A stretch of DNA of 64,000 bases from a virus (Duplodnaviria; Caudoviricetes), in IMG/VR virus record IMGVR_UViG_2907233695_000001, positions 64,001 to 128,000 of that record. One strand, given 5' to 3'. The notes below the pieces were generated by a model. It was given only the letters and a program-made list of their open reading frames with translations. It was not told where the DNA came from and did no database searches. Made by a program: the position numbers and the translations under genes. Below, one piece after another: positions 3,847-61,873 of this stretch. Every line of letters starts with the position of its first letter. Position 1 is the first letter of the stretch.

Positions 3847-4898
3847 TTATTTGTTTTCAACCACCAGTCCGATTGATTTTAAATATTCAATTTGAGCATC
3901 CGTTATCAGCAAAATGTCTTCTATTGTGTACAACTTTCCTTTATTCTTCAAATAATCTTGAATAAACTCTGCTTCTTCGAGTTCATCTACTTTCACTAAG
4001 ATCACTTCTCCTTGAACAATGTTGTGTACCAAACACTCCTTAACTTATAAGGAAAGACGAGTTTCATAAGCTTTTAAAAATTTCAGTAAGATCAATGGCA
4101 TCTTCAAATGCAATCTCATGAATATAGCATTCTCCAGAAACAACTTCGCCATTGTTCCTGATTTCAGTGCATACAATACCTCCACCTGAATATCGAAGCG
4201 GAATAACTATGATATTATCGCATCTTGGCAATTTTAAAATTTTCATACTTACCTCCAGTTGAATCACAAATTTTAAGCCGATTTAACTAATTTACTTTTA
4301 ATCTGCTGTAACGATAAATCTTTAACCATTCTACAGTAATAATCAAAACTGCTGGAATTCAAATCTTCGACTGTTATAAGCTCATCTGTATAGTTGTCGA
4401 TGATATCAACTTTGAATCCATTCGGCTTTTCAAAAATTACAAAAGTTACATCAGCGTAGTAATCATGCTCATCAAGGATTGTTTCTGCTGCATCTGCTGT
4501 TATGTATTCACTGTTAGAAATAATCCGCTTAAGTAAATAGTCTCTTTCAATAAATCGAATCCTCTTGGCATTTTTCACGTTTTAAATCCTCCCATATTCC
4601 TTTTTAGCGTCATTGACTGCCCACACAATACCAACCATTACAGCAAGCCATAGGATCGAACCTAACGCTTTCCACCAAGTTGAATCTATAAAGTCCATAC
4701 ATCGGCCTCCTCTTTATATGTATCCCGTTCCTCTTTGGTGTGGAATACGCTTAATATAGAACTACGATAAGTTTTTACACGTTGCTTTCCGTTAATAAAA
4801 ACAGAAGCCAAGTATTTTTCTTGCTCTGGATAATAATCCTTAATGATTGCTTTACCCAAACCATTAATCCAAACTGCTTGATTCTTTGCGAAGATCAT
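3847..4898 (-). CDS. Run of small hypothetical ORFs (3847-4032, 4064-4267, 4273-4578, 4582-4698 single-TM, 4686-4898)
   Basis: Each has an RBS; tightly packed and co-oriented. Confidence 0.65.
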
Positions 4899-4936
4899 TT
4901 TTTGTTGTCCTCCTGTTATATGATAAATCGAAGATT

Positions 4937-5425
4937 TTATCGAGGTAAATCACGAGAAAAGACAGACCCACGCTTAGGTGCTGCTACTTCTTCTGGAGCA
5001 ATCCCTTTACCTACTACACTCAAACGGCCTTCATCGTACCATTGCCCATCACGAGGCTTACCATCTTTATCAACTGGAGGTTCTACCCAATATTGATTAC
5101 AATTATGAAGGTTTTCAATTACCACTAATACCTTACCTCGAAAACCAGACACTTTATCCTGAACTTCTGTACCCAGAGGAATAGCATATATTTTTTGATA
5201 TTCATCTTCTCCATGCACTGCTTTAGAATCATCGACAATTTCAATTCTAGACTCATCAAAATACTCCGTTTTCTTGGGTGTTCCATCTGATGCTAATTCT
5301 TGAGGTGCTATGCCATATTGAGCACATCCGAACAAATGAGCGTTACGAGCAATAATAATACCTTCAAATCCAGATACACTGTCTTTAGCTACTACGTTCA
5401 TTGGATAATTAAATTTTGTTTGCAT
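4937..5425 (-). CDS. Protein with two tandem SH3-like repeats
   Basis: KDSVSGFEG...GCAQY...DG...YFDESRI and QDKVSGFRG...NCNQY...DG...WYDEGRL; AGGAG RBS before ATG 5425. Confidence 0.7.
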   Translation of the reverse strand: MQTKFNYPMNVVAKDSVSGFEGIIIARNAHLFGCAQYGIAPQELASDGTPKKTEYFDESRIEIVDDSKAVHGEDEYQKIYAIPLGTEVQDKVSGFRGKVLVVIENLHNCNQYWVEPPVDKDGKPRDGQWYDEGRLSVVGKGIAPEEVAAPKRGSVFSRDLPR

Positions 5426-5478
5426 TGTAGTCCATCTCCTAGTTTTTATTTTGTTATGATTAAAAAAGCTGCTCTTTA

Positions 5479-8400
5479 TCAAAATTCCTCAATTGAGACC
5501 AATTCATAATTACAACAATTTTTAATCGCCTCGGCTTGAGCAAGAATTAATGCTTCTTTCTCACAAAATGCATAAACTGTAGTCGTCCATCCAATCAATC
5601 TCACTTCATATTTCTTAGGTTTCATTTTTCATCTCTCCTGCTATCGAATAAAATTGCTTTTTCATTAGTTCAATCTAATCACATGTTGAGTCTTACACTT
5701 TTTACATTCTACATAGAAAGAACCAATATATTCCCAATGATGTTGATGCAATAACTTACAAATTAACTGTTTCAATTTTCAAATTCCCCTTTGCTTCAAT
5801 ACTTCTGGCCTCATACTCTGCATCCGTCTCGCTGTTATAGCAGGTTTTACATTCATCATAGAAACCAAAATGAACCTCTCCACAATTGCTACAGACTTTA
5901 AATTCAACCTCTACCATGCACACTCAACTCCTATGCATAATTTAGTTTTCAACTTGCCTGAGCCAATCCTAGAGCCTCTAAGACTTCATCATAGATACCA
6001 TTGTCATAGATAAACTGATTTACATGTTCAACTTCTTCATTGGTGAGCGAGATTTCAAAAGCCTCCGTACCTTCAAGCAGTGCCGTTATGATGATTTCAC
6101 CATCTGGATCATAAACCAGATTCAAAATAGTCACTACGTTAACACCAATCTCAGCAGCTTCGGCCTGAGTCAATTGCACATCTAACAATACTTCAACGAA
6201 TTCCTCTGACTTTAACACCATTACCAAACCTTTTGCTTTCATGTTCAAACACTCCTCTTGATGTTATTAGAGTAAAGATTGGTTTCCAGTTAGGCGAGTA
6301 ACATTTGGGGCAAACCATCGTTTTCTCTTGATACTCCGCAAAGGTAAATTGAGAATTACATCTTTTACATTCTTTTTTACACATTGTCATATGTATTGGT
6401 TCATCTCCTGTTTTATAGGATATTATATGCACTGGCCTATATTCATGTTACAATTCAATTCATATATTTTTCTTTTATAACTTTTGCAATGGCCTCGTTA
6501 ATCTTATACGTATCATAACCGATGTGTATTTCGTAAATAGTGAAATTGCTGTATGCAGGAAATTTGCGTGATGTAAGCTTGAATGGTTCGCCTGATCTAA
6601 TCCGCTGCAATAGTTCTTGAGTGGTTATTCCAGACACATAAATCAACTCCTCGCAAATTGTTGCTCCTTATTGATAAAGTCAATCATGTTATCAATAGCC
6701 TCGCTTCTAGACTTACCAAAAGCCACTCTGCCAAACAAATCTTCAACCACCCACATAAAGCCACGTTGATAAATTGAAAAATTCTCTTTTTGTTTGTTGC
6801 CGTTAATAATTTCTTGAAAGTCAAATTCACTGCCCATGTTTATCTCCTCCATTCCACAATTTAATCAATTCATGCTAAATGCTACAACTAAATACATCTT
6901 GTTATCAATAGTAAAAACTACTGTTCGGATATTTAATACATCGGAAATAACATAAGAATTTAATTTGGCATATAGATTAATTTTTCATCCCTGCTTTCCT
7001 TGTGATTCAGTGGCATAAATTCCAGCCACCCGTTTGTGCCTAGCTAAAACTTTTCATTGTCTCATAGTCTCATCTCTCCAATGGTTTATGCTTTATATAA
7101 ACAAGAAACATTATCGAGCCATTCTCAATCTTTTGAACATCATATACATTCATTAATTAATCCATTAGAATATTTCTAACTACAAACATTTAGTTTTTCC
7201 TCCATATATTATCCCTAGTAAATCCATAAAAAACCCACAAGAAGAACCAAGCCGCTGTTACTGACGTTCCAATTACACCTAGGTTTACATTTTCTAATAT
7301 GCCAGCTAAAGATACATAAGAAAATAACAATCCGAAAGACAATGAGAATATCTGTATTAGTAACATAAATATTTTTACTGCAATATGCTTATTTTTCATT
7401 TTTAACCTCGTTCAAAAGGAGTCATCGATTCAAGTCCATATACATTTCGTTTGCCATTAACGACATTGCTTCTGTGTTATTAGAAATAAGCATCATCATA
7501 AATGTTTCGTACACCTTTCTATATTCTTCTCCAGTTAAACCCTTACGATTTGCAACCTGTCTAAACTCTCCAAGTAAAGCACGTGCTTTCGCATCATTGT
7601 TTAAAACATCGATTACTTTTTGACTAATCATTTTAGACACCATCCCCTCGAAATACTTCTTTTATTGTACTTCTTTTTCCAGTTGCTCAAGTTGTTCTGC
7701 AATAAAATCAATCTGCTCCTGTGTCCAATCATCATCATATTGCCAATCATTCATTCTTAAGTTTACCTCCTCATGAAAGAATCCTTTTATCGTCTTTTTT
7801 CTAATTCTACTCGTGTTATGTCTTTTTCATTAATTCCATGTTCCTTTGTTGCTTTTTTAACTGCGTATTTTTCATCGTTAGCTATAATCCGAGTAAATAT
7901 CTCCTTACCGTTTGAAAGAGTATGGTAAACTAAATAGAAAGGTTGCGCCGTTAATCCGTTCATTTTACTTCATCTCCTTTTAAAATATTCAATTCATCAG
8001 AACCATTTGCCATAATAGTGTTCATCCTGCTTTTTCTTTGATAAGGTGTTACATTGATTTTGCTCATCTTTCAATATAATCTCTTTATCATCTTCATAAA
8101 CAATCTCATACAACTGACCCTTTGTAAAAATTATAGAAATGCAATCTTCTACACACATTAGGTTTCGTTTTTTTGATTTATCCTTTTTAATTTCATCTAA
8201 GTGATTAATTAAAAAGTCTTTACCCTCAATTGAAAGATGAATATTTTTCATTAGTTTATCAATCCTTTCTCAATCATCCATTGTCTTGTATTGCTTGAAC
8301 AGTGGTCATAAAACCCTTTTTTAACAATCCACTTTCCAGCATCAATCATATTATCAAATGTTTTTAAAACTTTCGCCGCTACATTTGAACTACCAGTGTA

Positions 8401-8490
8401 GTAAGTGTTTTGTTTAACTTGAATTTTTCTACTACCTGAAGTATTTTTTTGACTAGACTCCTGAAAAAATACAATCACTTTGTTTTCCAT
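5479..8490 (-). CDS. Array of small hypothetical ORFs (5479-5625, 5949-6248 acidic, 6193-6432 CxxC, 6455-6646, 6643-6852, 7190-7399 2-TM, 7422-7643, 7662-7754, 7787-7963, 7997-8251, 8251-8490)
   Basis: Co-oriented, mostly with an RBS; many end in the 18-bp palindrome. Confidence 0.65.
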
Positions 8491-8547
8491 TTTTGAAAAT
8501 CCTCCTCATCGAATGAAAATATAGTTTCATTACCATTTGTTACCTTA

Positions 8548-8576
8548 ATATTAGCACGTTTACATATATAAATCAA
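8548..8576 (-). promoter_or_regulatory. Sigma-A promoter with the 14-bp operator (8559-8572) driving the small-ORF array
   Basis: TTGATT-17-TAATAT; TTTACATATATAAA. Confidence 0.7.
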
Positions 8577-8716
8577 TATGTATTTTCTATATTTTACTTA
8601 ATTTATTTTCTTTATTCATATTAAAAATCCCACATATCAATTATTCATTGATACATGGGATCATGTTTTAAATTTAAATATAAACGGCAACTAGTAACAT
8701 CCCTTTCGACTGTTGG

Positions 8717-8869
8717 TTACATGACCAGCATTATTCTAATGTTTCCTTGTTCAAAACGCTTATCTTTCTCTGCTTTGCTAATTGCTTTCTGAGGATCAAT
8801 ACCCCATTCAATAAGTTTATTCATCAGCATTTCCTTTGTAAAAGCTCCTTTGCCAACAACAAGAAACAT
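8717..8869 (-). CDS. Small hypothetical protein (50 aa) downstream of the toxin
   Basis: MFLVVGKGAFTKEMLMNKLIEWGIDPQK...; AAAGGAG RBS. Confidence 0.55.
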   Translation of the reverse strand: MFLVVGKGAFTKEMLMNKLIEWGIDPQKAISKAEKDKRFEQGNIRIMLVM

Positions 8870-8897
8870 ATAATCGACTCTCCTTTTAAATTTTTAT

Positions 8898-9299
8898 TTA
8901 TACACAAGCAGCAACTTGTTTTTCTGGAATATAATTAAACAATCCAAAACTAATCATAAGAGCCTCATCAACTTTAGTCATATCTCTTGTACTAACAACT
9001 GCGTCTAGTTTATGTAATACTCTTCCCTTATCTACAAATCTGCATTGTTCCAAAAGCGCAATGCTGCTTTCTTTTAAATTTAGATTAACATGAGTAGGTA
9101 ACATTTTTTTAACCTTCGAAGTAATAGGACAAATGCCCACAACTGGTGAAAATCTATTTCCAATGTCATTAGAAACAACTAGACATGGCCTCAATCCTTT
9201 TTGTTCAGCTCCCACAGCGAAGGTTAAGTCGCAAAGCACAATATCTCCACGTTTGATTTCTAATTGATCCATACTTTTCACTCCTATATCTAAATTCAT
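8898..9299 (-). CDS. mazF: PemK/MazF-family endoribonuclease toxin
   Basis: IKRGDIV..DL....G.EQ.G.RPCLVVSNDIGNRFSP...PITS...LEQ.R.VDK.R signature. Confidence 0.9.
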   Translation of the reverse strand: MNLDIGVKSMDQLEIKRGDIVLCDLTFAVGAEQKGLRPCLVVSNDIGNRFSPVVGICPITSKVKKMLPTHVNLNLKESSIALLEQCRFVDKGRVLHKLDAVVSTRDMTKVDEALMISFGLFNYIPEKQVAACV

Positions 9300-9318
9300 A
9301 TTTTATGTTTATAATCAC

Positions 9319-9362
9319 ATTATACTGTTCCAATTAACCAAACACAAGCGAACATTTGTTTT
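9319..9362 (-). promoter_or_regulatory. Sigma-A promoter with an adjacent LexA-like box
   Basis: TTGTGT-17-TATAAT; CGAACATTTGTTTT at 9349-9362. Confidence 0.55.
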
Positions 9363-9585
9363 ATTTCCAACTTGTCAATACTATTTTCTGTTATGAAAAT
9401 CCATCTTGAAATATGCTCCATTTTATGGTATCGGCATCATCAATCACACCCCTTTGTATATCTTATTTATACCCAGTTTGTACATATGCTAATCATTTAA
9501 TCATTAAATTATAATCATATTTTCATTTTTAAGTAATAAAAAATCACCTCCAGCTTGCGGAGATGATCCTAAAGAAATCTACATT

Positions 9586-10432
9586 TTATGCTATGTCCGA
9601 ATCTCCAATTTCAAAAATAAAACCTTTGGATAAGCCTTCAGTTACTTTAACTTTGATTTTTTCACCTATGCTAACTATTTCAACTTCATCAGATATTAAT
9701 CCGATATAAGGGAAATCATGAGCATAAGCGAGACAAACCTTTTGACCAACTTCAAGCTTTTTCATTTGTATACAACTCCTTTAAATGAGAGTATGAATCA
9801 GTCATTTTATTGGAAAATCTCTTCAATGTCTTCTCTTTCGTTAATTTGCTCAAGAATGAAATCTAAGCCCCACTGAGATACTTCTTCATCGGACATCTCT
9901 TTAGGATCAAGCTTTCCAATACCTTCAGATAAGGTTTTTTCTAACATGTACTTTCCGTATTCCAGAGTTGTGTATTTATCTCCATCGATAATAAAACTTC
10001 TCATTTTCTTTCCCTCCATTTCACACAATAAAATAACCCTTTTATTTGGTAATAATATCCCAAACTAAATTAAATAAGCCTCGCTCAAACATAATGCTCT
10101 TGTACTCTCGCCATTCAGTATACGAAGTTGTGATACCCAATTTCGCTTTGTGATAACTGGTTTTAGCCTTAACAAAGAGTTCTTCATTGCTATATTCCAT
10201 ACTCAGCCCTCCAATCCTTTTCTTGTTCTGCTGCTTCTGATTTGCTTGCAACATAAATTGCGTCACCTATTTGGTTTCCTTCATGATCCTTCAACTGAAC
10301 AACCCACGAGCGTGTTCCTCTGTCGTACCATTTATCAACTTTAGCTGGTTTTTGTTCAGTATCTTCTAGTGAGAAGTTATATTTAAACTTTTTCATTTCG
10401 ACACCTCCTATGTATTTCCTTCTTGACTCCAT
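9586..10432 (-). CDS. Four small hypothetical ORFs (9586-9765, 9807-10028, 10042-10266, 10190-10432)
   Basis: RBS present; three stop codons lie inside the 18-bp palindromes. Confidence 0.65.
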
Positions 10433-10542
10433 TATAACCCATATATTTATATATGTAAAGTTTTAATATCTATATTTTACTTTATTTATTTTCAAACGAA
10501 ATCATCTTTTCAATGGGAAAAGAAAAAGCCCTAAAAAAGGGC

Positions 10543-11670
10543 TTATTTAAACACTGGCACACCATCTTTAATTGTATATTGCATACCTTTGTTTTCTTTG
10601 CTCTCCACTTGTTTCTTTTTGGCCTGTGACCTACCAGTAATCATATCCTCAATTGAACTAAGTTTCTTCTTGCTCTCTGCATACTTCTTTTTCCACTTTT
10701 CAACTTCTTCTGAAAGTTGCTGATTCTTCTCATTCACCTGCTCAATAAGTCGATCCTTATCCATGGTTATAAAGTCAGCCATTGTCTTGTCGCTTTCCAA
10801 TTCATTCACCCGAAGTCTCAGCATCGTGTTATCATCTTTTAGTTTAAATACATCATCAAGCAAATTACTGTTTTTCTTAAACAAGTCATCAATAACAATT
10901 GTTTGGGAATTATGTATCTGTTCCAGCATCCCATTATCAATATATACACTTTCAACAGATGAAGCCGTTTCTTCAACCGTTACCAATTGGAGGTGATTTT
11001 TCTTTCTTCCTCTTAACTTTTTATTTTGTTCAACAGTTTCAAAAAACTTTTCGTCTGTGATGATCGTTTTTAAGCTATTGTTGTATTTATTCAAACAAGC
11101 AGCCTTTGTATGATTTATTTTCTCTGATGCTTTTTGTGCTGCCTCTCCAAGTGTTCCACCATTATTGATTGTACTATAGTAACAATCCAGCAAAATCAAT
11201 TCTTCTTTTGGTGTCCATGTTACAAGATGGTGATCCATGGCCTTAGACCGTTGCTCTTTGCTTGCAGACTCTTCAACGTTAAGGAGGTACGTTCTAACCT
11301 GCTTTGCAATTTCGCTGTCTCTGAGAAGCATTCCAATGCGTAGGATCGACCTTCTCGGAATCAACTTTACTATGAACTGGTTAGGGTTTAAGGCTTTTGA
11401 CAAGATGTCAAAACCCTCTGATTTAGAAGTAACTTTCTTGACTCCATCTGATTTGAATTCATCTTTATGCCTATGCAATACTTGGTCAATAGCTGTCTTG
11501 TTTACTTCGTAATAATCTGCCACCATTTGAACCGTCATGCTCTCACCGTCCGGTAACAATGAAAGCAATTTAACCTTATTCATTACTTCCGTTTTAACTA
11601 TGTATTGATCTCGAAAACTTTGATCCTCAATGAATTTTTCCTGTAATGCTAAATTTGTCAAAATAAACAT
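10543..11670 (-). CDS. Antirepressor-like N-domain + RsfA/Myb-like domain + coiled coil
   Basis: VADYYEV...RIGMLLRDSEIAKQVRTYLL; WTPKEELILL...GGTLGEA...INHTKAAC..KYN; heptad-rich C-terminus. Confidence 0.7.
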   Translation of the reverse strand: MFILTNLALQEKFIEDQSFRDQYIVKTEVMNKVKLLSLLPDGESMTVQMVADYYEVNKTAIDQVLHRHKDEFKSDGVKKVTSKSEGFDILSKALNPNQFIVKLIPRRSILRIGMLLRDSEIAKQVRTYLLNVEESASKEQRSKAMDHHLVTWTPKEELILLDCYYSTINNGGTLGEAAQKASEKINHTKAACLNKYNNSLKTIITDEKFFETVEQNKKLRGRKKNHLQLVTVEETASSVESVYIDNGMLEQIHNSQTIVIDDLFKKNSNLLDDVFKLKDDNTMLRLRVNELESDKTMADFITMDKDRLIEQVNEKNQQLSEEVEKWKKKYAESKKKLSSIEDMITGRSQAKKKQVESKENKGMQYTIKDGVPVFK

Positions 11671-11759
11671 CTCCTTTTATATAATTTATAATTGATTAAT
11701 GTAAATATAACATATGAATTTATGTATGTAAATATAGGAAAATAAAAAACTCCAAGGGA

Positions 11760-13540: not shown

Positions 13541-13822
13541 TTATGCCATTATATGCTGTTTTGGTTCATACTCAGGCAAGTGGTATAGATCGAATCCATT
13601 ATGTAATACCTCATACTTTAATTGCTTTGCTCTGCCTTTTTCAAACTGTTTAATTGTCTCTACTCCTAACCAGTTAAAGTCTGTTATCCATTCGCCAAAC
13701 ATTAACAGATGACCGTCAATGATATCATAATTAAAGAATTTGACTGTTTTTATTTCATCATCCAATTCAACCACAGACCAACATGGAACATTTTTATGAT
13801 ATTCTTGAAATGCTTTTTTCAT
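13541..13822 (-). CDS. Hypothetical protein
   Basis: AGGAGG RBS. Confidence 0.65.
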   Translation of the reverse strand: MKKAFQEYHKNVPCWSVVELDDEIKTVKFFNYDIIDGHLLMFGEWITDFNWLGVETIKQFEKGRAKQLKYEVLHNGFDLYHLPEYEPKQHIMA

Positions 13823-17344: not shown

Positions 17345-17517
17345 TAGAACCGCCTCCAGTGATTAATTGAATTTTTTTAATTCCTTATATTTCTTATTAT
17401 AAGGCTTTACATATATAAAGTCAAACATTATTTATTGTTTTTATATCTTTTATTTTAAATGTTTGTAACCCTATGAAGCAGCTATTTCATTCCCTGATAC
17501 AAAAAGAAAACCGCTTT

Positions 17518-28094: not shown

Positions 28095-29147
28095 TTATCT
28101 ATTTCCTATAATCTTCATCGCTTCTCTAAGCAATTGCGTTCTCATTCCATTTCTTGTTCCGTTGAGTAGCATTTTCATCTCATCAAATGTAAGTTCGTCA
28201 AAAGCGTCATTGTCAATTTCTTCATCCAACAAAATTCCAGCCATCTTAGATACATCACGCTTTTTGTTCACGTAAGATTTCCATAAAGTATTAATATCAC
28301 TATGTCCAGTCTGCATTTGAGCAGCTTTAAAGTCCCCTTGAGTATCAATGATGAAGTTGGGGGCAAAATTTCTGAAACTGTGGAAAACGATATTCCGTTT
28401 CGGATGTATGCCCAACTCTTCCTTTAGAGTGTTCATCATTTCCCAAATTGTTCTTTTGCTTAGATGGAAAATTTTATTGTCACTGTACCGCTGGTAGTAT
28501 GTAAGCGACTTGATTTGTTTCAGGTCATTGTACAAGTCAAGAGTAATCGGTTGAGACATTTCTTTATCAGTTTTTTCTTCAACTGTATTAACGAAACAAC
28601 AATTTTGTTCATGATCCACTTGCAAATCATCCCAAGAGAGATTTAACAGCGTATCTTCCCTGTAACTGGTGCGAGTAGCCATTCTAATAAGAAGACTCTT
28701 CTCCAATCCTTTAACCTGTTTTTGCACTGCAACAATCATAGCATCTACTTCTTCAGGGGATAAGTCGCCATAACTTTTGCTTTTATTATTTAGTTTATCA
28801 ATTTGAAATACTTCGGTATCGATTCCGTATTTCGTATCATATTTATTCCTTTTGAAGAATGCATATAAGCTTTGGAGGGAAGCAATTTTGCGATTCACAC
28901 TACTGGAAGAATATTTTTTATCATTAATTAAAAAGTTTCTATAATGAACAACTGTTTTATGTTCTATTTGAAGATCATCAAATGATAGCGAAAGCAAGTT
29001 TTTCCCTAGAAATGAGAAAAATAATTCAATATCATGTTTATAACCTATTTTTGTTCCCTCTGAAAGTCGCACGTCTTCGAGAAATAAGCATATATCAGAA
29101 TATACTGAACTATTAACAAATCCAACAATATTTTTAAGACTTTGCAT
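28095..29147 (-). CDS. Tyrosine recombinase
   Basis: SAM-like N-domain; R(SYRE), HSFR, GHS, Y(KSY) catalytic residues intact. Confidence 0.88.
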   Translation of the reverse strand: MQSLKNIVGFVNSSVYSDICLFLEDVRLSEGTKIGYKHDIELFFSFLGKNLLSLSFDDLQIEHKTVVHYRNFLINDKKYSSSSVNRKIASLQSLYAFFKRNKYDTKYGIDTEVFQIDKLNNKSKSYGDLSPEEVDAMIVAVQKQVKGLEKSLLIRMATRTSYREDTLLNLSWDDLQVDHEQNCCFVNTVEEKTDKEMSQPITLDLYNDLKQIKSLTYYQRYSDNKIFHLSKRTIWEMMNTLKEELGIHPKRNIVFHSFRNFAPNFIIDTQGDFKAAQMQTGHSDINTLWKSYVNKKRDVSKMAGILLDEEIDNDAFDELTFDEMKMLLNGTRNGMRTQLLREAMKIIGNR

Positions 29148-38581: not shown

Positions 38582-38767
38582 AAAAATGAAATCATTATTT
38601 TAATGGAATCCATTTTTGTGGATTCTTTATTTTTTATTTTGAAAAGTATTGACCTTTAAAAGCAAAAGATGGTAATTTAAGTGTGCAGGGAACAACTACC
38701 AAATGTACCTGCCGAATCTAAATCTTAGAGGGAGTGATAAAATGAAAAATACAAAGGAGAAGATTAA

Positions 38768-57064: not shown

Positions 57065-57565
57065 GTGTATACCTTAGATAATGTTGATCGAGTCATCGAA
57101 AATATCTTAATTAAATTGATTGACAATCAAAACTTATTAAAATGTCTCAAGTATCCATCTCCTGATGCATTAAGTAAACCTGATTTAACTCAAGATGAAA
57201 TCAATGTCCTTTTCGACTATGACTCTGATCCCAGAGACATAAGGATATCTTTCACACCTTTCAACCTAACGACAGTAGAAGAAGCAAAAAGTGAATTGCG
57301 AATCTTTATCAGAGATTTTGAGCCTGAAAATATTCATATTGCCAATGTTAATATTGCCTTTCAGGTTATTGTAAGTAATAGGATATGGAGACTCGATGAA
57401 GGTAAACAAAGGCCATTGGTCATCATTCAAGAGTTGCTGAAAAGTCTTAATGGAGTAGACATTGAACTTGTTGGGAATTTGTATTTTAACAGTCGAATAC
57501 GAATTGTAAACTATAACGCCTACTTTTCAGGTTATGAATTGTATCCAAATGTGAGGTCGATTTAG
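57065..57565 (+). CDS. Tail terminator-like protein
   Basis: Position; LLKCLKY...DAL motif. Confidence 0.55.
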   Translation: MYTLDNVDRVIENILIKLIDNQNLLKCLKYPSPDALSKPDLTQDEINVLFDYDSDPRDIRISFTPFNLTTVEEAKSELRIFIRDFEPENIHIANVNIAFQVIVSNRIWRLDEGKQRPLVIIQELLKSLNGVDIELVGNLYFNSRIRIVNYNAYFSGYELYPNVRSI

Positions 57566-59318: not shown

Positions 59319-59480
59319 TAATTTTATATTCTTCTAAGAGAGGCAATCATTTTGGTTGCTTCTCTTTTTATTTACCAAATGAAATGTTGGTTTTATTGTG
59401 ATTTTCATCTTGAGAAACCCTTTATTTATAAGGGTTTTTGAATATGAGGATTAAAAATATTCAGGGAGGTTTTATCCAAA

Positions 59481-60850: not shown

Positions 60851-61873
60851 ATGCCTAGAAAAACATTTAAAAAGCAAATCACATCACCAGAACTGACAGA
60901 ACAAATAAATCAAAAAAATAAGAAACTGATTGATCGTTTCTTGAAGGAAAAAAATACACGATGTTCAGACACAACAATTGAAGCTTACACCAGCGACTTA
61001 AATATTTTCTTCACATGGAATCTTCTGAATAATGAAAATAAATTTTTCATTGAAATTAAGAAGATTGAATTCGCAGATTTCTTTAGTTACTGTGTTGAAG
61101 AATTAAAGTGGGGTTCTGCTCGTTTTGGACGAATGAAGTCTTGCCTTAGTTCGCTCTCTGAATTTATCATTCGATACTATGATGAAGATCATCCCAATTT
61201 TAGAAATGTTATCCTAAAAGCAATTGAATCAATGCCTCGTAACCCTGTACGAGAAAAAACGATTTTATCTGAAGAACAAGTAAATAGTCTTTTGAATCAT
61301 CTTAAAAATGAAATCAGCAGACCTCAAGAAGCCTGTCTTCTCGCGTTAGCAATCGCAAGTGGTGCAAGGGTCTCTGAGTGGCTACGATTCACAACCGATA
61401 TCATAGATGAAAATAACACGGCTTTTGAAGATATGTTTCTTGAGACTACTAAGAAAATAAAAACTAAAGGCCGAACCAAGACAGGCAAAATGATTGAGAA
61501 GTATATAATTAAAGACATTTTCCTGCCCTATTATAAAGACTGGTTGGTTGAGAGAGAAAGAATTATGAATGACAAAGGCAAGGATCATAATTCAATCTTT
61601 ATTAAAAGAGATGGTGAACCTGCCACAGTTGAGACAGTTCGAGGATGGATCGAAAAATGGGAATTATTTTTGGGAGTTCCTTTCTATCCTCATTGCCTTC
61701 GTCATTTCATAACTACCTACATGTCTCGTCTAGGAATGTCTTCTGATTTTATCGTTGAAGTGATGGGATGGAATTCTACTGACATGGTTAAGGTCTATAA
61801 CGACTTAACCGCTAAAGAAAAGAAATGGAAAGACCTAGAAAAACTGAAGGATCACTTAACTAAAACAGAATAA
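60851..61873 (+). CDS. Tyrosine recombinase (YomM-like) within the tail module
   Basis: SGARVSE, KTKG, HCLR, MGW, VKVY; stop codon lies inside an 18-bp palindrome (61870-61887). Confidence 0.88.
   Translation: MPRKTFKKQITSPELTEQINQKNKKLIDRFLKEKNTRCSDTTIEAYTSDLNIFFTWNLLNNENKFFIEIKKIEFADFFSYCVEELKWGSARFGRMKSCLSSLSEFIIRYYDEDHPNFRNVILKAIESMPRNPVREKTILSEEQVNSLLNHLKNEISRPQEACLLALAIASGARVSEWLRFTTDIIDENNTAFEDMFLETTKKIKTKGRTKTGKMIEKYIIKDIFLPYYKDWLVERERIMNDKGKDHNSIFIKRDGEPATVETVRGWIEKWELFLGVPFYPHCLRHFITTYMSRLGMSSDFIVEVMGWNSTDMVKVYNDLTAKEKKWKDLEKLKDHLTKTE

Follow-up and report, generated by a model that had tools for sequence, protein, structure and literature searches.

A Spacing-Specific 18-bp Dyad at Gene Junctions of a Large SPbeta-Like Phage Coincides with Mosaic Breakpoints in Related Phages

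The Locus and Its Small Genes

The window, by which we mean the whole stretch of 64,000 nucleotides analysed here, corresponds to bases 64001–128000 of a 164,118-bp phage contig (C13; IMG/VR record IMGVR_UViG_2907233695_000001) which has 35% G+C and belongs to a 7.56-Mb assembly, the remaining DNA of which has 51% G+C. Around 95 kb of the contig is taken up by small genes and replication genes on the minus strand, and the structural genes lie on the plus strand. The subject of this work is a short element of this phage, the 18-bp dyad ATRAAA-N6-TTTYAT, copies of which recur at the junctions between genes and coincide, in two groups of related phages, with the breakpoints of genome mosaicism. 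It was first noticed, in a looser form, in a run of small open reading frames (ORFs) near the beginning of the window, where the following features are found:

3847–10396, minus strand: run of about 23 small ORFs (gene calls)
8898–9272, minus strand: PemK/MazF-like toxin gene (Pfam E=3.9e-27)
10431–10459, minus strand: strong promoter of the sigma-70 type within the array, TTTACA-17-TATAAT, matching at 11 of 12 positions
near 8576–8548, minus strand: second promoter-like element
8626–8662, 9540–9570 and 10526–10544, minus strand: terminator-like hairpins

An earlier note on this DNA had presented the run as an integron-like array, in which one promoter would serve a series of promoterless cassettes, each small ORF being closed by a palindromic site. 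Neither part of this picture can be maintained. Because several promoters and terminators lie within the array, namely at least one strong promoter, a second promoter-like site and three terminator-like hairpins on the coding strand, the region is not a single cassette promoter (Pc) followed by promoterless cassettes; moreover, only about 10 of its 22 junctions carry a site. When 20 ORFs of the run were scanned against Pfam, no family was found in all but one. The toxin gene is followed by a 50-amino-acid (aa) ORF (8717–8869, no family) and then by a terminator of its own (8662–8626), and this toxin-first order at 8717–9272 is unusual for a MazEF pair.

Definition of the Motif

All 14 of the 18-mers previously listed as sites for this region are present where they had been placed, but their description as a palindrome with 5-bp arms and an 8-bp core stands only in part: the loose form, in which arm complementarity ranges from 2 to 5 of 5 positions, occurs at chance level, whereas a real and tighter motif lies inside it. 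Generic 5-N8-5 inverted repeats with at least 4 of 5 matches number 141 in positions 4000–10600, as against 145 ± 12 in dinucleotide shuffles, and show no preference for the N8 spacing there. A weight matrix built on the 14 listed sites does peak at N8, but this test is circular. The more restricted form ATRAA-N8-TTYAT, taken from the best copies, has 13 exact matches in the window versus 1–5 at any of the alternative spacings between 2 and 15; seven of these matches fall outside the region of the earlier note and provide a test that is not circular. Over the whole contig this form has 31 matches versus 2–8 at other spacings, and it shows no N8 excess in the other 7.4 Mb of the assembly.

A better notation is ATRAAA-N6-TTTYAT, which, allowing at most one mismatch, is matched 66 times on the contig at N6 versus 7–22 times at the other spacings from N2 to N10; 50 of these 66 copies are intergenic, in a contig of which 12% is intergenic. 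Within positions 4000–10600 the corresponding counts are 8 at N6 and 0–2 at other spacings. It had been cautioned that high AT content and TAA or TGA stops might supply part of one arm for free; this caveat is answered by the observation that, when the left arm is held fixed together with any stop that it contains, the exact right arm still follows specifically at N6, 16 times versus 0–2 times at the other spacings from 2 to 10. For the scoring of individual sites we used a matrix trained solely on two other phages, sites with scores of 12 or more being considered confident. At this threshold the contig has 49 sites at N6 versus 1–6 at other spacings; at thresholds of 8–10, about 16–27% of the matches are expected to be false. 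The weight-matrix and spacing check thus gives a result that is N6-specific and intergenic for the tight motif, without any preference for N8 in the loose palindrome.

One alternative explanation would have the motif arise by chance from AT-rich intergenic sequence together with TAA or TGA stop codons. It finds some basis in the chance level of the loose 5-8-5 criterion and in the three listed sites that prove spurious, but it is refuted by spacing specificity, both with the left arm held fixed (16 versus 0–2) and with the foreign-trained matrix (49 versus 1–6), as well as by AT-rich control phages that have no excess of the motif; we give it practically no weight.

By the same matrix, 7 of the 14 listed sites are confident and four are marginal (8.8–9.7), whereas three (4259, 7097 and 7176) are not members of the family. 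The individual sites, given without strand, are as follows, the last two lines adding copies from elsewhere in the window:

4923–4940: confident, score 14.3; an arm holds the stop of gene 4937–5425 (stop overlap −4)
5648–5665: confident, exact consensus, score 15.5
7648–7665: confident, two mismatches to the strict consensus, score 12.4
7773–7790: confident, score 19.2; holds the stop of gene 7787–7963
8513–8530: confident, perfect 7-bp arms, score 16.2
9793–9810: confident, score 13.9; holds the stop of gene 9807–10028
10028–10045: confident, score 20.0, the highest of the region
4050–4067: marginal, score 9.3
7980–7997: marginal, score 8.8
9572–9589: marginal, score 9.3; at the stop of gene 9586–9765, abutting the terminator hairpin 9570–9540
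10496–10513: marginal, score 9.7; flanked by a terminator and the region's strongest promoter
17473–17490: further copy outside the region of the earlier note
59379–59396: copy that follows a terminator in the structural arm

In the main minus-strand gene run of the window (2753–31211) there are 15 copies with at most one mismatch, including those at 13805, 17473, 17863, 18792 and 19508; further copies in the plus-strand arm lie at 38586, 47453 and 61870. One exact copy of the consensus, at 11663–11680, overlaps the region of the ribosome-binding site (RBS) and start codon of a 372-aa gene instead of following a stop, and may be either a chance match or an atypical site.

Anatomy and Placement of the Element

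For minus-strand genes, the placement of the sites relative to translation signals had been described correctly: in plus-strand reading, the stop codon of the upstream gene lies in the right arm and the next RBS comes after the left arm. Read along the coding strand in 209 sites from three genomes, the stop (TAA or TGA) coincides with motif bases 2–4 in 68 cases, and the next start codon follows the motif at a median distance of 25 nt. The motif is a dyad with a spacing of strictly six bases between 6-bp arms, in which bases 7 and 12 mirror each other; its six central bases are nearly free of information, and little information is found beyond the arms and the bases adjoining them.

The combinations of the two degenerate arm positions, bases 3 and 16, are A/C in 68 cases, A/T in 55, G/T in 43 and G/C in 32, a distribution compatible with independence (p=0.12). 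A hairpin, whether of RNA or of DNA, was rejected because these bases vary independently, without covariation, and the commonest combination, A/C, is a mismatch that cannot pair. Judging from these combinations, the motif probably acts as DNA and not as a hairpin. The same data bear upon the idea that the motif acts in mRNA, as a termination context, a re-initiation signal or an intercistronic processing site, which we hold to be very improbable. The left arm does contain the stop codon in one third of the copies and the next start codon follows at a short median distance, as would suit such a signal; however, the commonest combination of coding-strand arms produces the A-C mismatch without covariation, the motif is symmetric with respect to strand, and copies are also present after terminators, before promoters and in leaders that have no upstream gene. 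Moreover, a role in mRNA would leave the breakpoint pattern described below unexplained.

A function as promoter or terminator was rejected as well, for there is no hexamer pattern and the placement with respect to promoter-like and terminator-like signals varies: some copies stand in 5' leaders, some separate co-transcribed genes, and others precede a terminator or lie in the interval from a terminator to a promoter. A possible mark of orientation, a G at base 12, was present in 26 sites and gone in 209.

Distribution among Large Firmicute Phages

The contig encodes homologues of the SPbeta proteins YopP, YopQ, YopR (MrpR) and YomM. Eight of its proteins, including YopP, YopQ and YopR, have homologues in all of the four phages used for comparison: G136, a 180.5-kb IMG/VR phage; a prophage in genome G051, another genus of the host family; SPbeta; and Geobacillus virus E3. 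Among named phages, Geobacillus virus E3 and the Tsamsa group come nearest to it as judged from the RecD-like helicase, with aa identities of 43% and 38%, respectively. Counts of the motif at N6 in various phages are listed below together with the built-in control count or with counts at other spacings, the exact 16-mer being TRAAA-N6-TTTYA:

G136: at most one mismatch, 115 copies (91 intergenic); control 18
G051 prophage (contig 1, about 30 kb to beyond 200 kb): at most one mismatch, 101 copies; 12–23 at other spacings
Geobacillus virus E3: at most one mismatch, 69 copies; control 16
FADO: at most one mismatch, 49 copies; control 8
SPbeta: at most one mismatch, 49 copies; control 9
Tsamsa: at most one mismatch, 31 copies; control 10
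FADO, PJN02 and 2S-4: exact 16-mer, 34 copies each; control 2
Perkons: exact 16-mer, 52 copies; control 6
BcoS-136: exact 16-mer, 26 copies; control 12
Staphylococcus SPbeta-like phage: exact 16-mer, 20 copies; control 10, and 2 at N5

As a group, the large SPbeta-like siphophages of Firmicutes have the motif in common, and its excess is absent from the control phages SPO1, SPP1, K, AR9 and 0305phi8-36, AT-rich ones included. Some copies correspond to each other across phages in more than their arms. The 20-mer at the 8513 site is identical in three divergent phages whose flanks differ, and the centre of the 7773 site, GGATTC, is found also in the G051 prophage and in E3. Between the phage of the window and the G051 prophage there are 11 pairs of identical centres versus about 3.3 expected, an expectation which ignores base composition, and the order of these pairs is not clearly collinear.

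With regard to the host DNA, TRAAA-N6-TTTYA is slightly over-represented in the rest of the assembly (82 copies versus about 64 at other spacings), and three copies lie within 1 kb on a contig of lower G+C content (C64, 26397–27307), which may carry a related prophage fragment. The phage contig itself stands alone, without host flanks and without terminal overlap, and its phage may be episomal, induced or merely unjoined in the assembly. The related G051 prophage is integrated within a 502-kb chromosomal contig (C1, from about 30 kb to beyond 200 kb), IMG/VR locus L008 being the same prophage.

A Regulatory Site?

A dispersed dyad could be a regulatory DNA site for a dimeric DNA-binding protein, serving as operator, roadblock or insulator between gene units, with recombination as a by-product in the manner of the PeSL (promoter-early stem-loop) cassettes of T4-type phages. 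We regard this possibility as rather unlikely, if clearly the most serious of the alternatives. A symmetric arrangement of arms around a free centre, located between genes, would suit a dimeric binder, and the copies are concentrated in the early and accessory arm. The 8513 site, which had been placed rightly between the promoter-like element at 8576–8548 and the first ORF, has perfect 7-bp arms just downstream of that promoter and is the copy that stays identical in three divergent phages. Dispersed operators also have a precedent in this very group, the SPBRE operators of SPbeta (PMC10516654).

The phage probably has a repressor of the corresponding family, as judged from homology: genes for YopQ (DndB domain) and YopR/MrpR homologues are adjacent at 57393–59771 of contig C13, that is, 4.2–6.6 kb before the window (Pfam MrpR_N_CB 1.9e-26, MrpR_C_cat 6.3e-18), the MrpR homologue being encoded 5.6 kb before it, and this pair, which is kept in G136, the G051 prophage, E3 and SPbeta at 25–33% aa identity, is probably the lysogeny repressor module. 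An operator for an MrpR-like master repressor was dropped as the leading reading for several reasons. The SPBRE is ATACAAAAAATATGTAT-like, and hence different from ATRAAA-N6-TTTYAT, a comparison that derives from SPbeta (seven of the ten published promoter regions, those in the stretch examined) and is indirect for the MrpR homologue of the phage studied here. MrpR ChAP-seq found ten SPBRE peaks only (PMC10516654), whereas SPbeta carries the motif 49 times. The box recognized in this family is asymmetric and bound by a monomer, as seen with SroF, the phi3T repressor, which binds a 26-bp asymmetric box in this way (bioRxiv 10.1101/2025.11.27.690993). Finally, the same motif occurs in phages that share just about 30% identity in their MrpR proteins. 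Against a regulatory site more generally speaks the placement of the copies, which varies with respect to promoters and terminators.

Breakpoints of Homology in Related Phages

The earlier note had proposed to ask whether breakpoints of gene gain, loss and reordering in related phages fall in the 8-bp core of the sites. This was examined in the SPbeta and FADO groups, which are relatives and not the lineage of the phage of the window, and there the mosaic breakpoints do fall on the motif. In a 17-kb early region compared among five phages, all of the eight site junctions of SPbeta hold a breakpoint versus 9 of 34 site-less junctions (p=2e-4), the other four genomes giving similar results. Genome-wide, the five genomes of the SPbeta group have a breakpoint in 136 of 205 site junctions versus 221 of 768 site-less ones. 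When the comparison is confined to co-directional junctions with gaps of 14–120 bp, the counts are 68 of 113 versus 64 of 290 (p from 4e-5 to 0.02 per genome), with equal median gaps in the two classes (47 bp with and 48 bp without a site). The result was replicated in a separate clade formed by the trio of FADO, PJN02 and 2S-4 (p from 3.5e-5 to 5e-7), and with a neighbourhood control seven of the eight genomes, from both clades, stay significant. Altogether, in five SPbeta-like and three FADO-like genomes, the frequency of breakpoints at site junctions is two to four times that at matched site-less junctions.

The breakpoints are also positioned with precision. In transcription orientation, the starts of homology cluster at motif base 0–1 (40 events) and its ends at base 16–17 (35 events); a smaller peak of ends is seen at base 5, where the left arm terminates. 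At site-less junctions of equal size homology stops at the stop codon, whereas in the presence of a site it continues through the motif. Secondary peaks at base 5 and at bases 12–17 give an indirect hint of cleavage at the boundaries between arms and centre. When regions are paired by anchoring at a site, homology extends to both flanks in 26 pairs, and is confined to the left flank in 21 and to the right flank in 25. Of these 46 one-sided pairs, 40 have the same centre; the remaining six differ and switch at the boundary between arm and centre, although common descent of a site with one of its flanks would look alike. For example, the SPbeta site with centre GATGCA shares its right flank alone with Goe13 and its left flank alone with SPbetaL8, so that Goe13 and SPbetaL8 have in common an 18-19-mer at this site and nothing else. 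In SPbetaL4, homology to SPbeta stops at the left arm of the site lying directly before the anti-Gabija gene Gad1. A purely regulatory site would give no account of such whole 18-mers, free centre included, persisting between unrelated flanks.

Recent events can be followed in the FADO group, among genomes that are 95–98% identical, where several indels start exactly at the edge of a site. Two small insertions in FADO lie between a site and a second site of degenerate sequence, and several other indels have a site at one end only. These events are relevant to another explanation, in which a phage-encoded HNH or homing endonuclease would cut the palindrome, and the resulting double-strand breaks at gene ends would be mended by end joining or with a co-infecting relative as template. 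Palindromic targets of 16–18 bp suit dimeric nucleases, an ORF of this kind adjoins the YopP-like gene of the window (see below), SPbeta-like phages carry HNH and LigD-type genes, and among the recent indels of the FADO group are several that reach exactly to a site on one side but have none on the other. Yet we consider this explanation improbable: break repair with resection would be expected to leave junctions scattered across tens to hundreds of bases, whereas the peaks observed are 1–2 nt wide at both edges; a phage that cuts its own genome 50–100 times would need self-protection; and no nuclease is among the contig proteins having homologues in all four of the compared phages.

Two other sequences of FADO are of note. 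At about 127,375–127,406 of this genome, a 1.4-kb insertion of phage 2S-4 begins right after a dif-like sequence (ACTTCCTAGAATATATGTTATGTAAACT), which we take to be close to the chromosomal dif site of Bacillus subtilis. Two FADO-specific insertions (53.2–54.3 kb and 58.0–58.2 kb) have at their flanks another palindrome (ACGTTGTCAACGT or CGTTGACAACG), with end repeats of 35–51 bp; this palindrome may serve as an operator or be a further repeat that is prone to recombination.

Candidate Recombinases

The window contains two genes for tyrosine recombinases that could act upon the motif, one of them next to a nuclease-like ORF:

28095–29147, minus strand: YopP-like tyrosine recombinase with R163, K192, H256-x-x-R259, H282 and Y292; candidate enzyme
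60851–61873, plus strand: YomM-like tyrosine recombinase, catalytic set present, with W; second candidate, a junction site containing its stop codon
29168–30667, minus strand: 499-aa ORF with HNH/homing-endonuclease PHROG matches, directly upstream of the YopP-like gene

Homologues of the YopP-like protein are present in all four of the compared phages, and four of the five proteins keep the R-K-H-R-H-Y set; YomM-like proteins keep the catalytic set too. Genes of the YopP type were found in 91 phage records, all of them from Firmicute siphophages of 114–170 kb. A phmmer search of the YopP-like protein against solved structures gave no match, and no reported role of YopP or YomM in SPbeta was found in the literature searched.

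Comparison with Known Systems

The proposal that the sites are cassette junctions with a geometry like that of tyrosine recombinase sites has fared well, given that the motif is a dyad with a fixed 6-bp centre and that breakpoints fall on it in motif-bearing relatives. As in integrons, small accessory ORFs have behind them an imperfect palindrome that starts in or next to the stop codon, the element carrying them also encodes a tyrosine recombinase, and the junctions coincide with gene gain or replacement in relatives. The attC sites of integrons are imperfect palindromes or hairpins of 57–141 bp, with R''-L''/L'-R' boxes and GTTRRRY cores, and their cassettes depend upon one Pc located by attI. 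The sites here differ in being double-strand dyads of 18 bp, of the form ATRAAA-N6-TTTYAT, without attC architecture; they are spread genome-wide, inside ordinary operons that have their own promoters and terminators, and mostly show replacement at a common joint rather than insertion or excision of cassettes between two sites. Nor is there an integrase of the IntI type: the integron-integrase model TIGR02249 gives 20.4 bits for 28095–29147, against a cutoff of 265, and no match for 60851–61873. For these reasons, to which are added the several promoters and terminators and the rarity of two-site cassette indels, the reading of the region as an integron has to be abandoned.

Compared with the core sites of simple tyrosine recombinase systems (loxP/Cre, FRT/Flp and dif/Xer), the element has in common the inverted arms around a centre that is 6–8 bp long in those systems, where identity of the centre governs productive exchange; an enzyme of the type R-K-H-R-H/W-Y is also encoded, its link to the site being putative. 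Those systems differ in their arms of 11–13 bp and in having one or two copies per replicon, whereas the motif has arms of 6–7 bp, 50–115 copies and a centre of its own in each copy. Dispersed prophage operators, including the stoperators of cluster A mycobacteriophages, resemble the element in that tens of copies of a short site occupy the short intergenic spaces of a temperate phage and often touch stop codons. Stoperators and SPBRE are asymmetric, bound by monomers and different between heteroimmune phages; in contrast, the motif is symmetric and the same across distant phages.

The pdif/dif modules of Acinetobacter plasmids likewise consist of many short dyad sites of the recombinase type, with a 6-bp centre, which are found in accessory DNA around adaptive genes mobile between replicons, with 11-bp arms that resemble chromosomal dif and are used by host XerC/XerD (PMC6449649). 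The arms here measure 6 bp and are unlike Bacillus dif, the excess of the motif in host DNA is at most faint, and the candidate enzymes are phage-encoded. The PeSLs of T4-type phages offer another parallel, because a repeated intergenic element marks the ends of indels and replacements in hyperplastic, ORFan-rich regions (PMC2839356, PMC4122927), much as endpoints coincide with the motif in the SPbeta and FADO groups. PeSLs are composites of a sigma-70 promoter and a terminator hairpin that recombine by sequence homology (PMC2839356, PMC4122927), whereas the motif has neither promoter hexamers nor a stable hairpin and its 12 fixed bases are too few for homologous recombination. By analogy, then, the element would seem to work most like pdif/dif modules and PeSL shuffling, from which it is set apart by short arms, a free and copy-specific centre, copy number and phage-encoded candidate enzymes.

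A Possible System for Module Exchange

What, then, could be the function of a dyad that is placed at gene ends, shared by a whole group of phages and coincident with breakpoints in two clades of relatives? Our leading explanation, in which belief and doubt are about evenly balanced, is that the copies of the motif are crossover joints for the exchange of modules, with conserved tyrosine recombinases of the YopP or YomM kind as perhaps the enzymes involved. A further and more tentative step would be to consider that SPbeta-like phages carry a dedicated, phage-encoded system of site-specific recombination, for which the YopP-/YomM-type enzyme is a candidate on grounds of sequence; this we judge possible but less probable than the joint role itself. 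Since the breakpoints come from relatives, we infer the joint role in the phage of the window, as we do the site-specific rather than break-induced nature of the process and the identity of the enzyme.

The mechanism envisaged is the following. The 18-bp dyad would be an element of junctions acting at the DNA level, with two 6-bp inverted arms read by a protein dimer and a free 6-bp centre specific to each copy. It stands just after a gene, its left arm often supplying the stop, and is followed by a short leader and the RBS of the next gene. When related phages meet, crossovers would be favoured in or at the element, and because of this preference a single gene or small block could be exchanged cleanly, with its own translation signals and with the frame intact. 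A recombinase of the YopP or YomM kind may bind the arms and exchange strands at the boundaries between arms and centre, a supposition that comes from the tyrosine-recombinase-like geometry and from the presence of recombinases that are conserved in the group and otherwise unexplained. A genome would thereby possess 50–115 short core sites after its genes, each addressed by its own 6-bp centre, at which co-resident relatives could swap genes or blocks in register, anti-defence genes included.

Several results weigh against crossover joints served by such enzymes. None of 31 pure insertions in the SPbeta group has sites at both ends, and among 362 replacements in this group just 30 have both ends at sites, with 113 having one end and 219 neither. 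Because of these two results, the motif is better seen as a crossover hot spot that yields replacements than as a means of integron-style capture and excision. Moreover, just 10–24 of the 124–141 breakpoint clusters per genome in the SPbeta group are within 12 bp of a site. Protein synteny against the G051 prophage gives 11 breaks and no conserved junction at sites versus 73 and 17 elsewhere, a comparison that points in the expected direction but is underpowered and not significant (p=0.2, range 0.2–1). Laboratory hybrids of phi3T and SPbeta switch parents within identical blocks of 1.4–4.9 kb which are bounded by sites, and because the switches lie within long identical blocks, ordinary homologous recombination suffices for them and they do not tell the mechanisms apart. 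With respect to the enzymes, YopP and YomM of SPbeta have Lys at the second catalytic Arg; 6-bp arms are short for a recombinase-binding element; and the co-occurrence of motif and YopP is a correlation within one phage group, which is not phylogenetically independent. Even so limited, the correlation is imperfect, for Lactococcus phage 949 (12 copies, control 6) and Brevibacillus phage Sundance (7, control 5) have a YopP-like gene with little or no excess of the motif. Lastly, a search for close relatives of the 164-kb phage, which extended over phages, contigs from viruses, genomes and metagenomes, and 136 host-family genomes, found none; the sole gene to align, at about 75% nucleotide identity, was that at 4937–5425.

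If module exchange at these joints is true, it would constitute a genome-wide, replacement-type counterpart of the integron; no description of the motif or of such a system was found in the literature searched. It would provide a mechanism by which ORFan and anti-defence genes are reshuffled without breaking frames in large temperate phages of Firmicutes, and it would give a function to YopP and YomM in SPbeta, a model phage that is genetically tractable. The sites would also be of practical use as landmarks delimiting the accessory-gene modules of phage genomes, possibly also for engineering.

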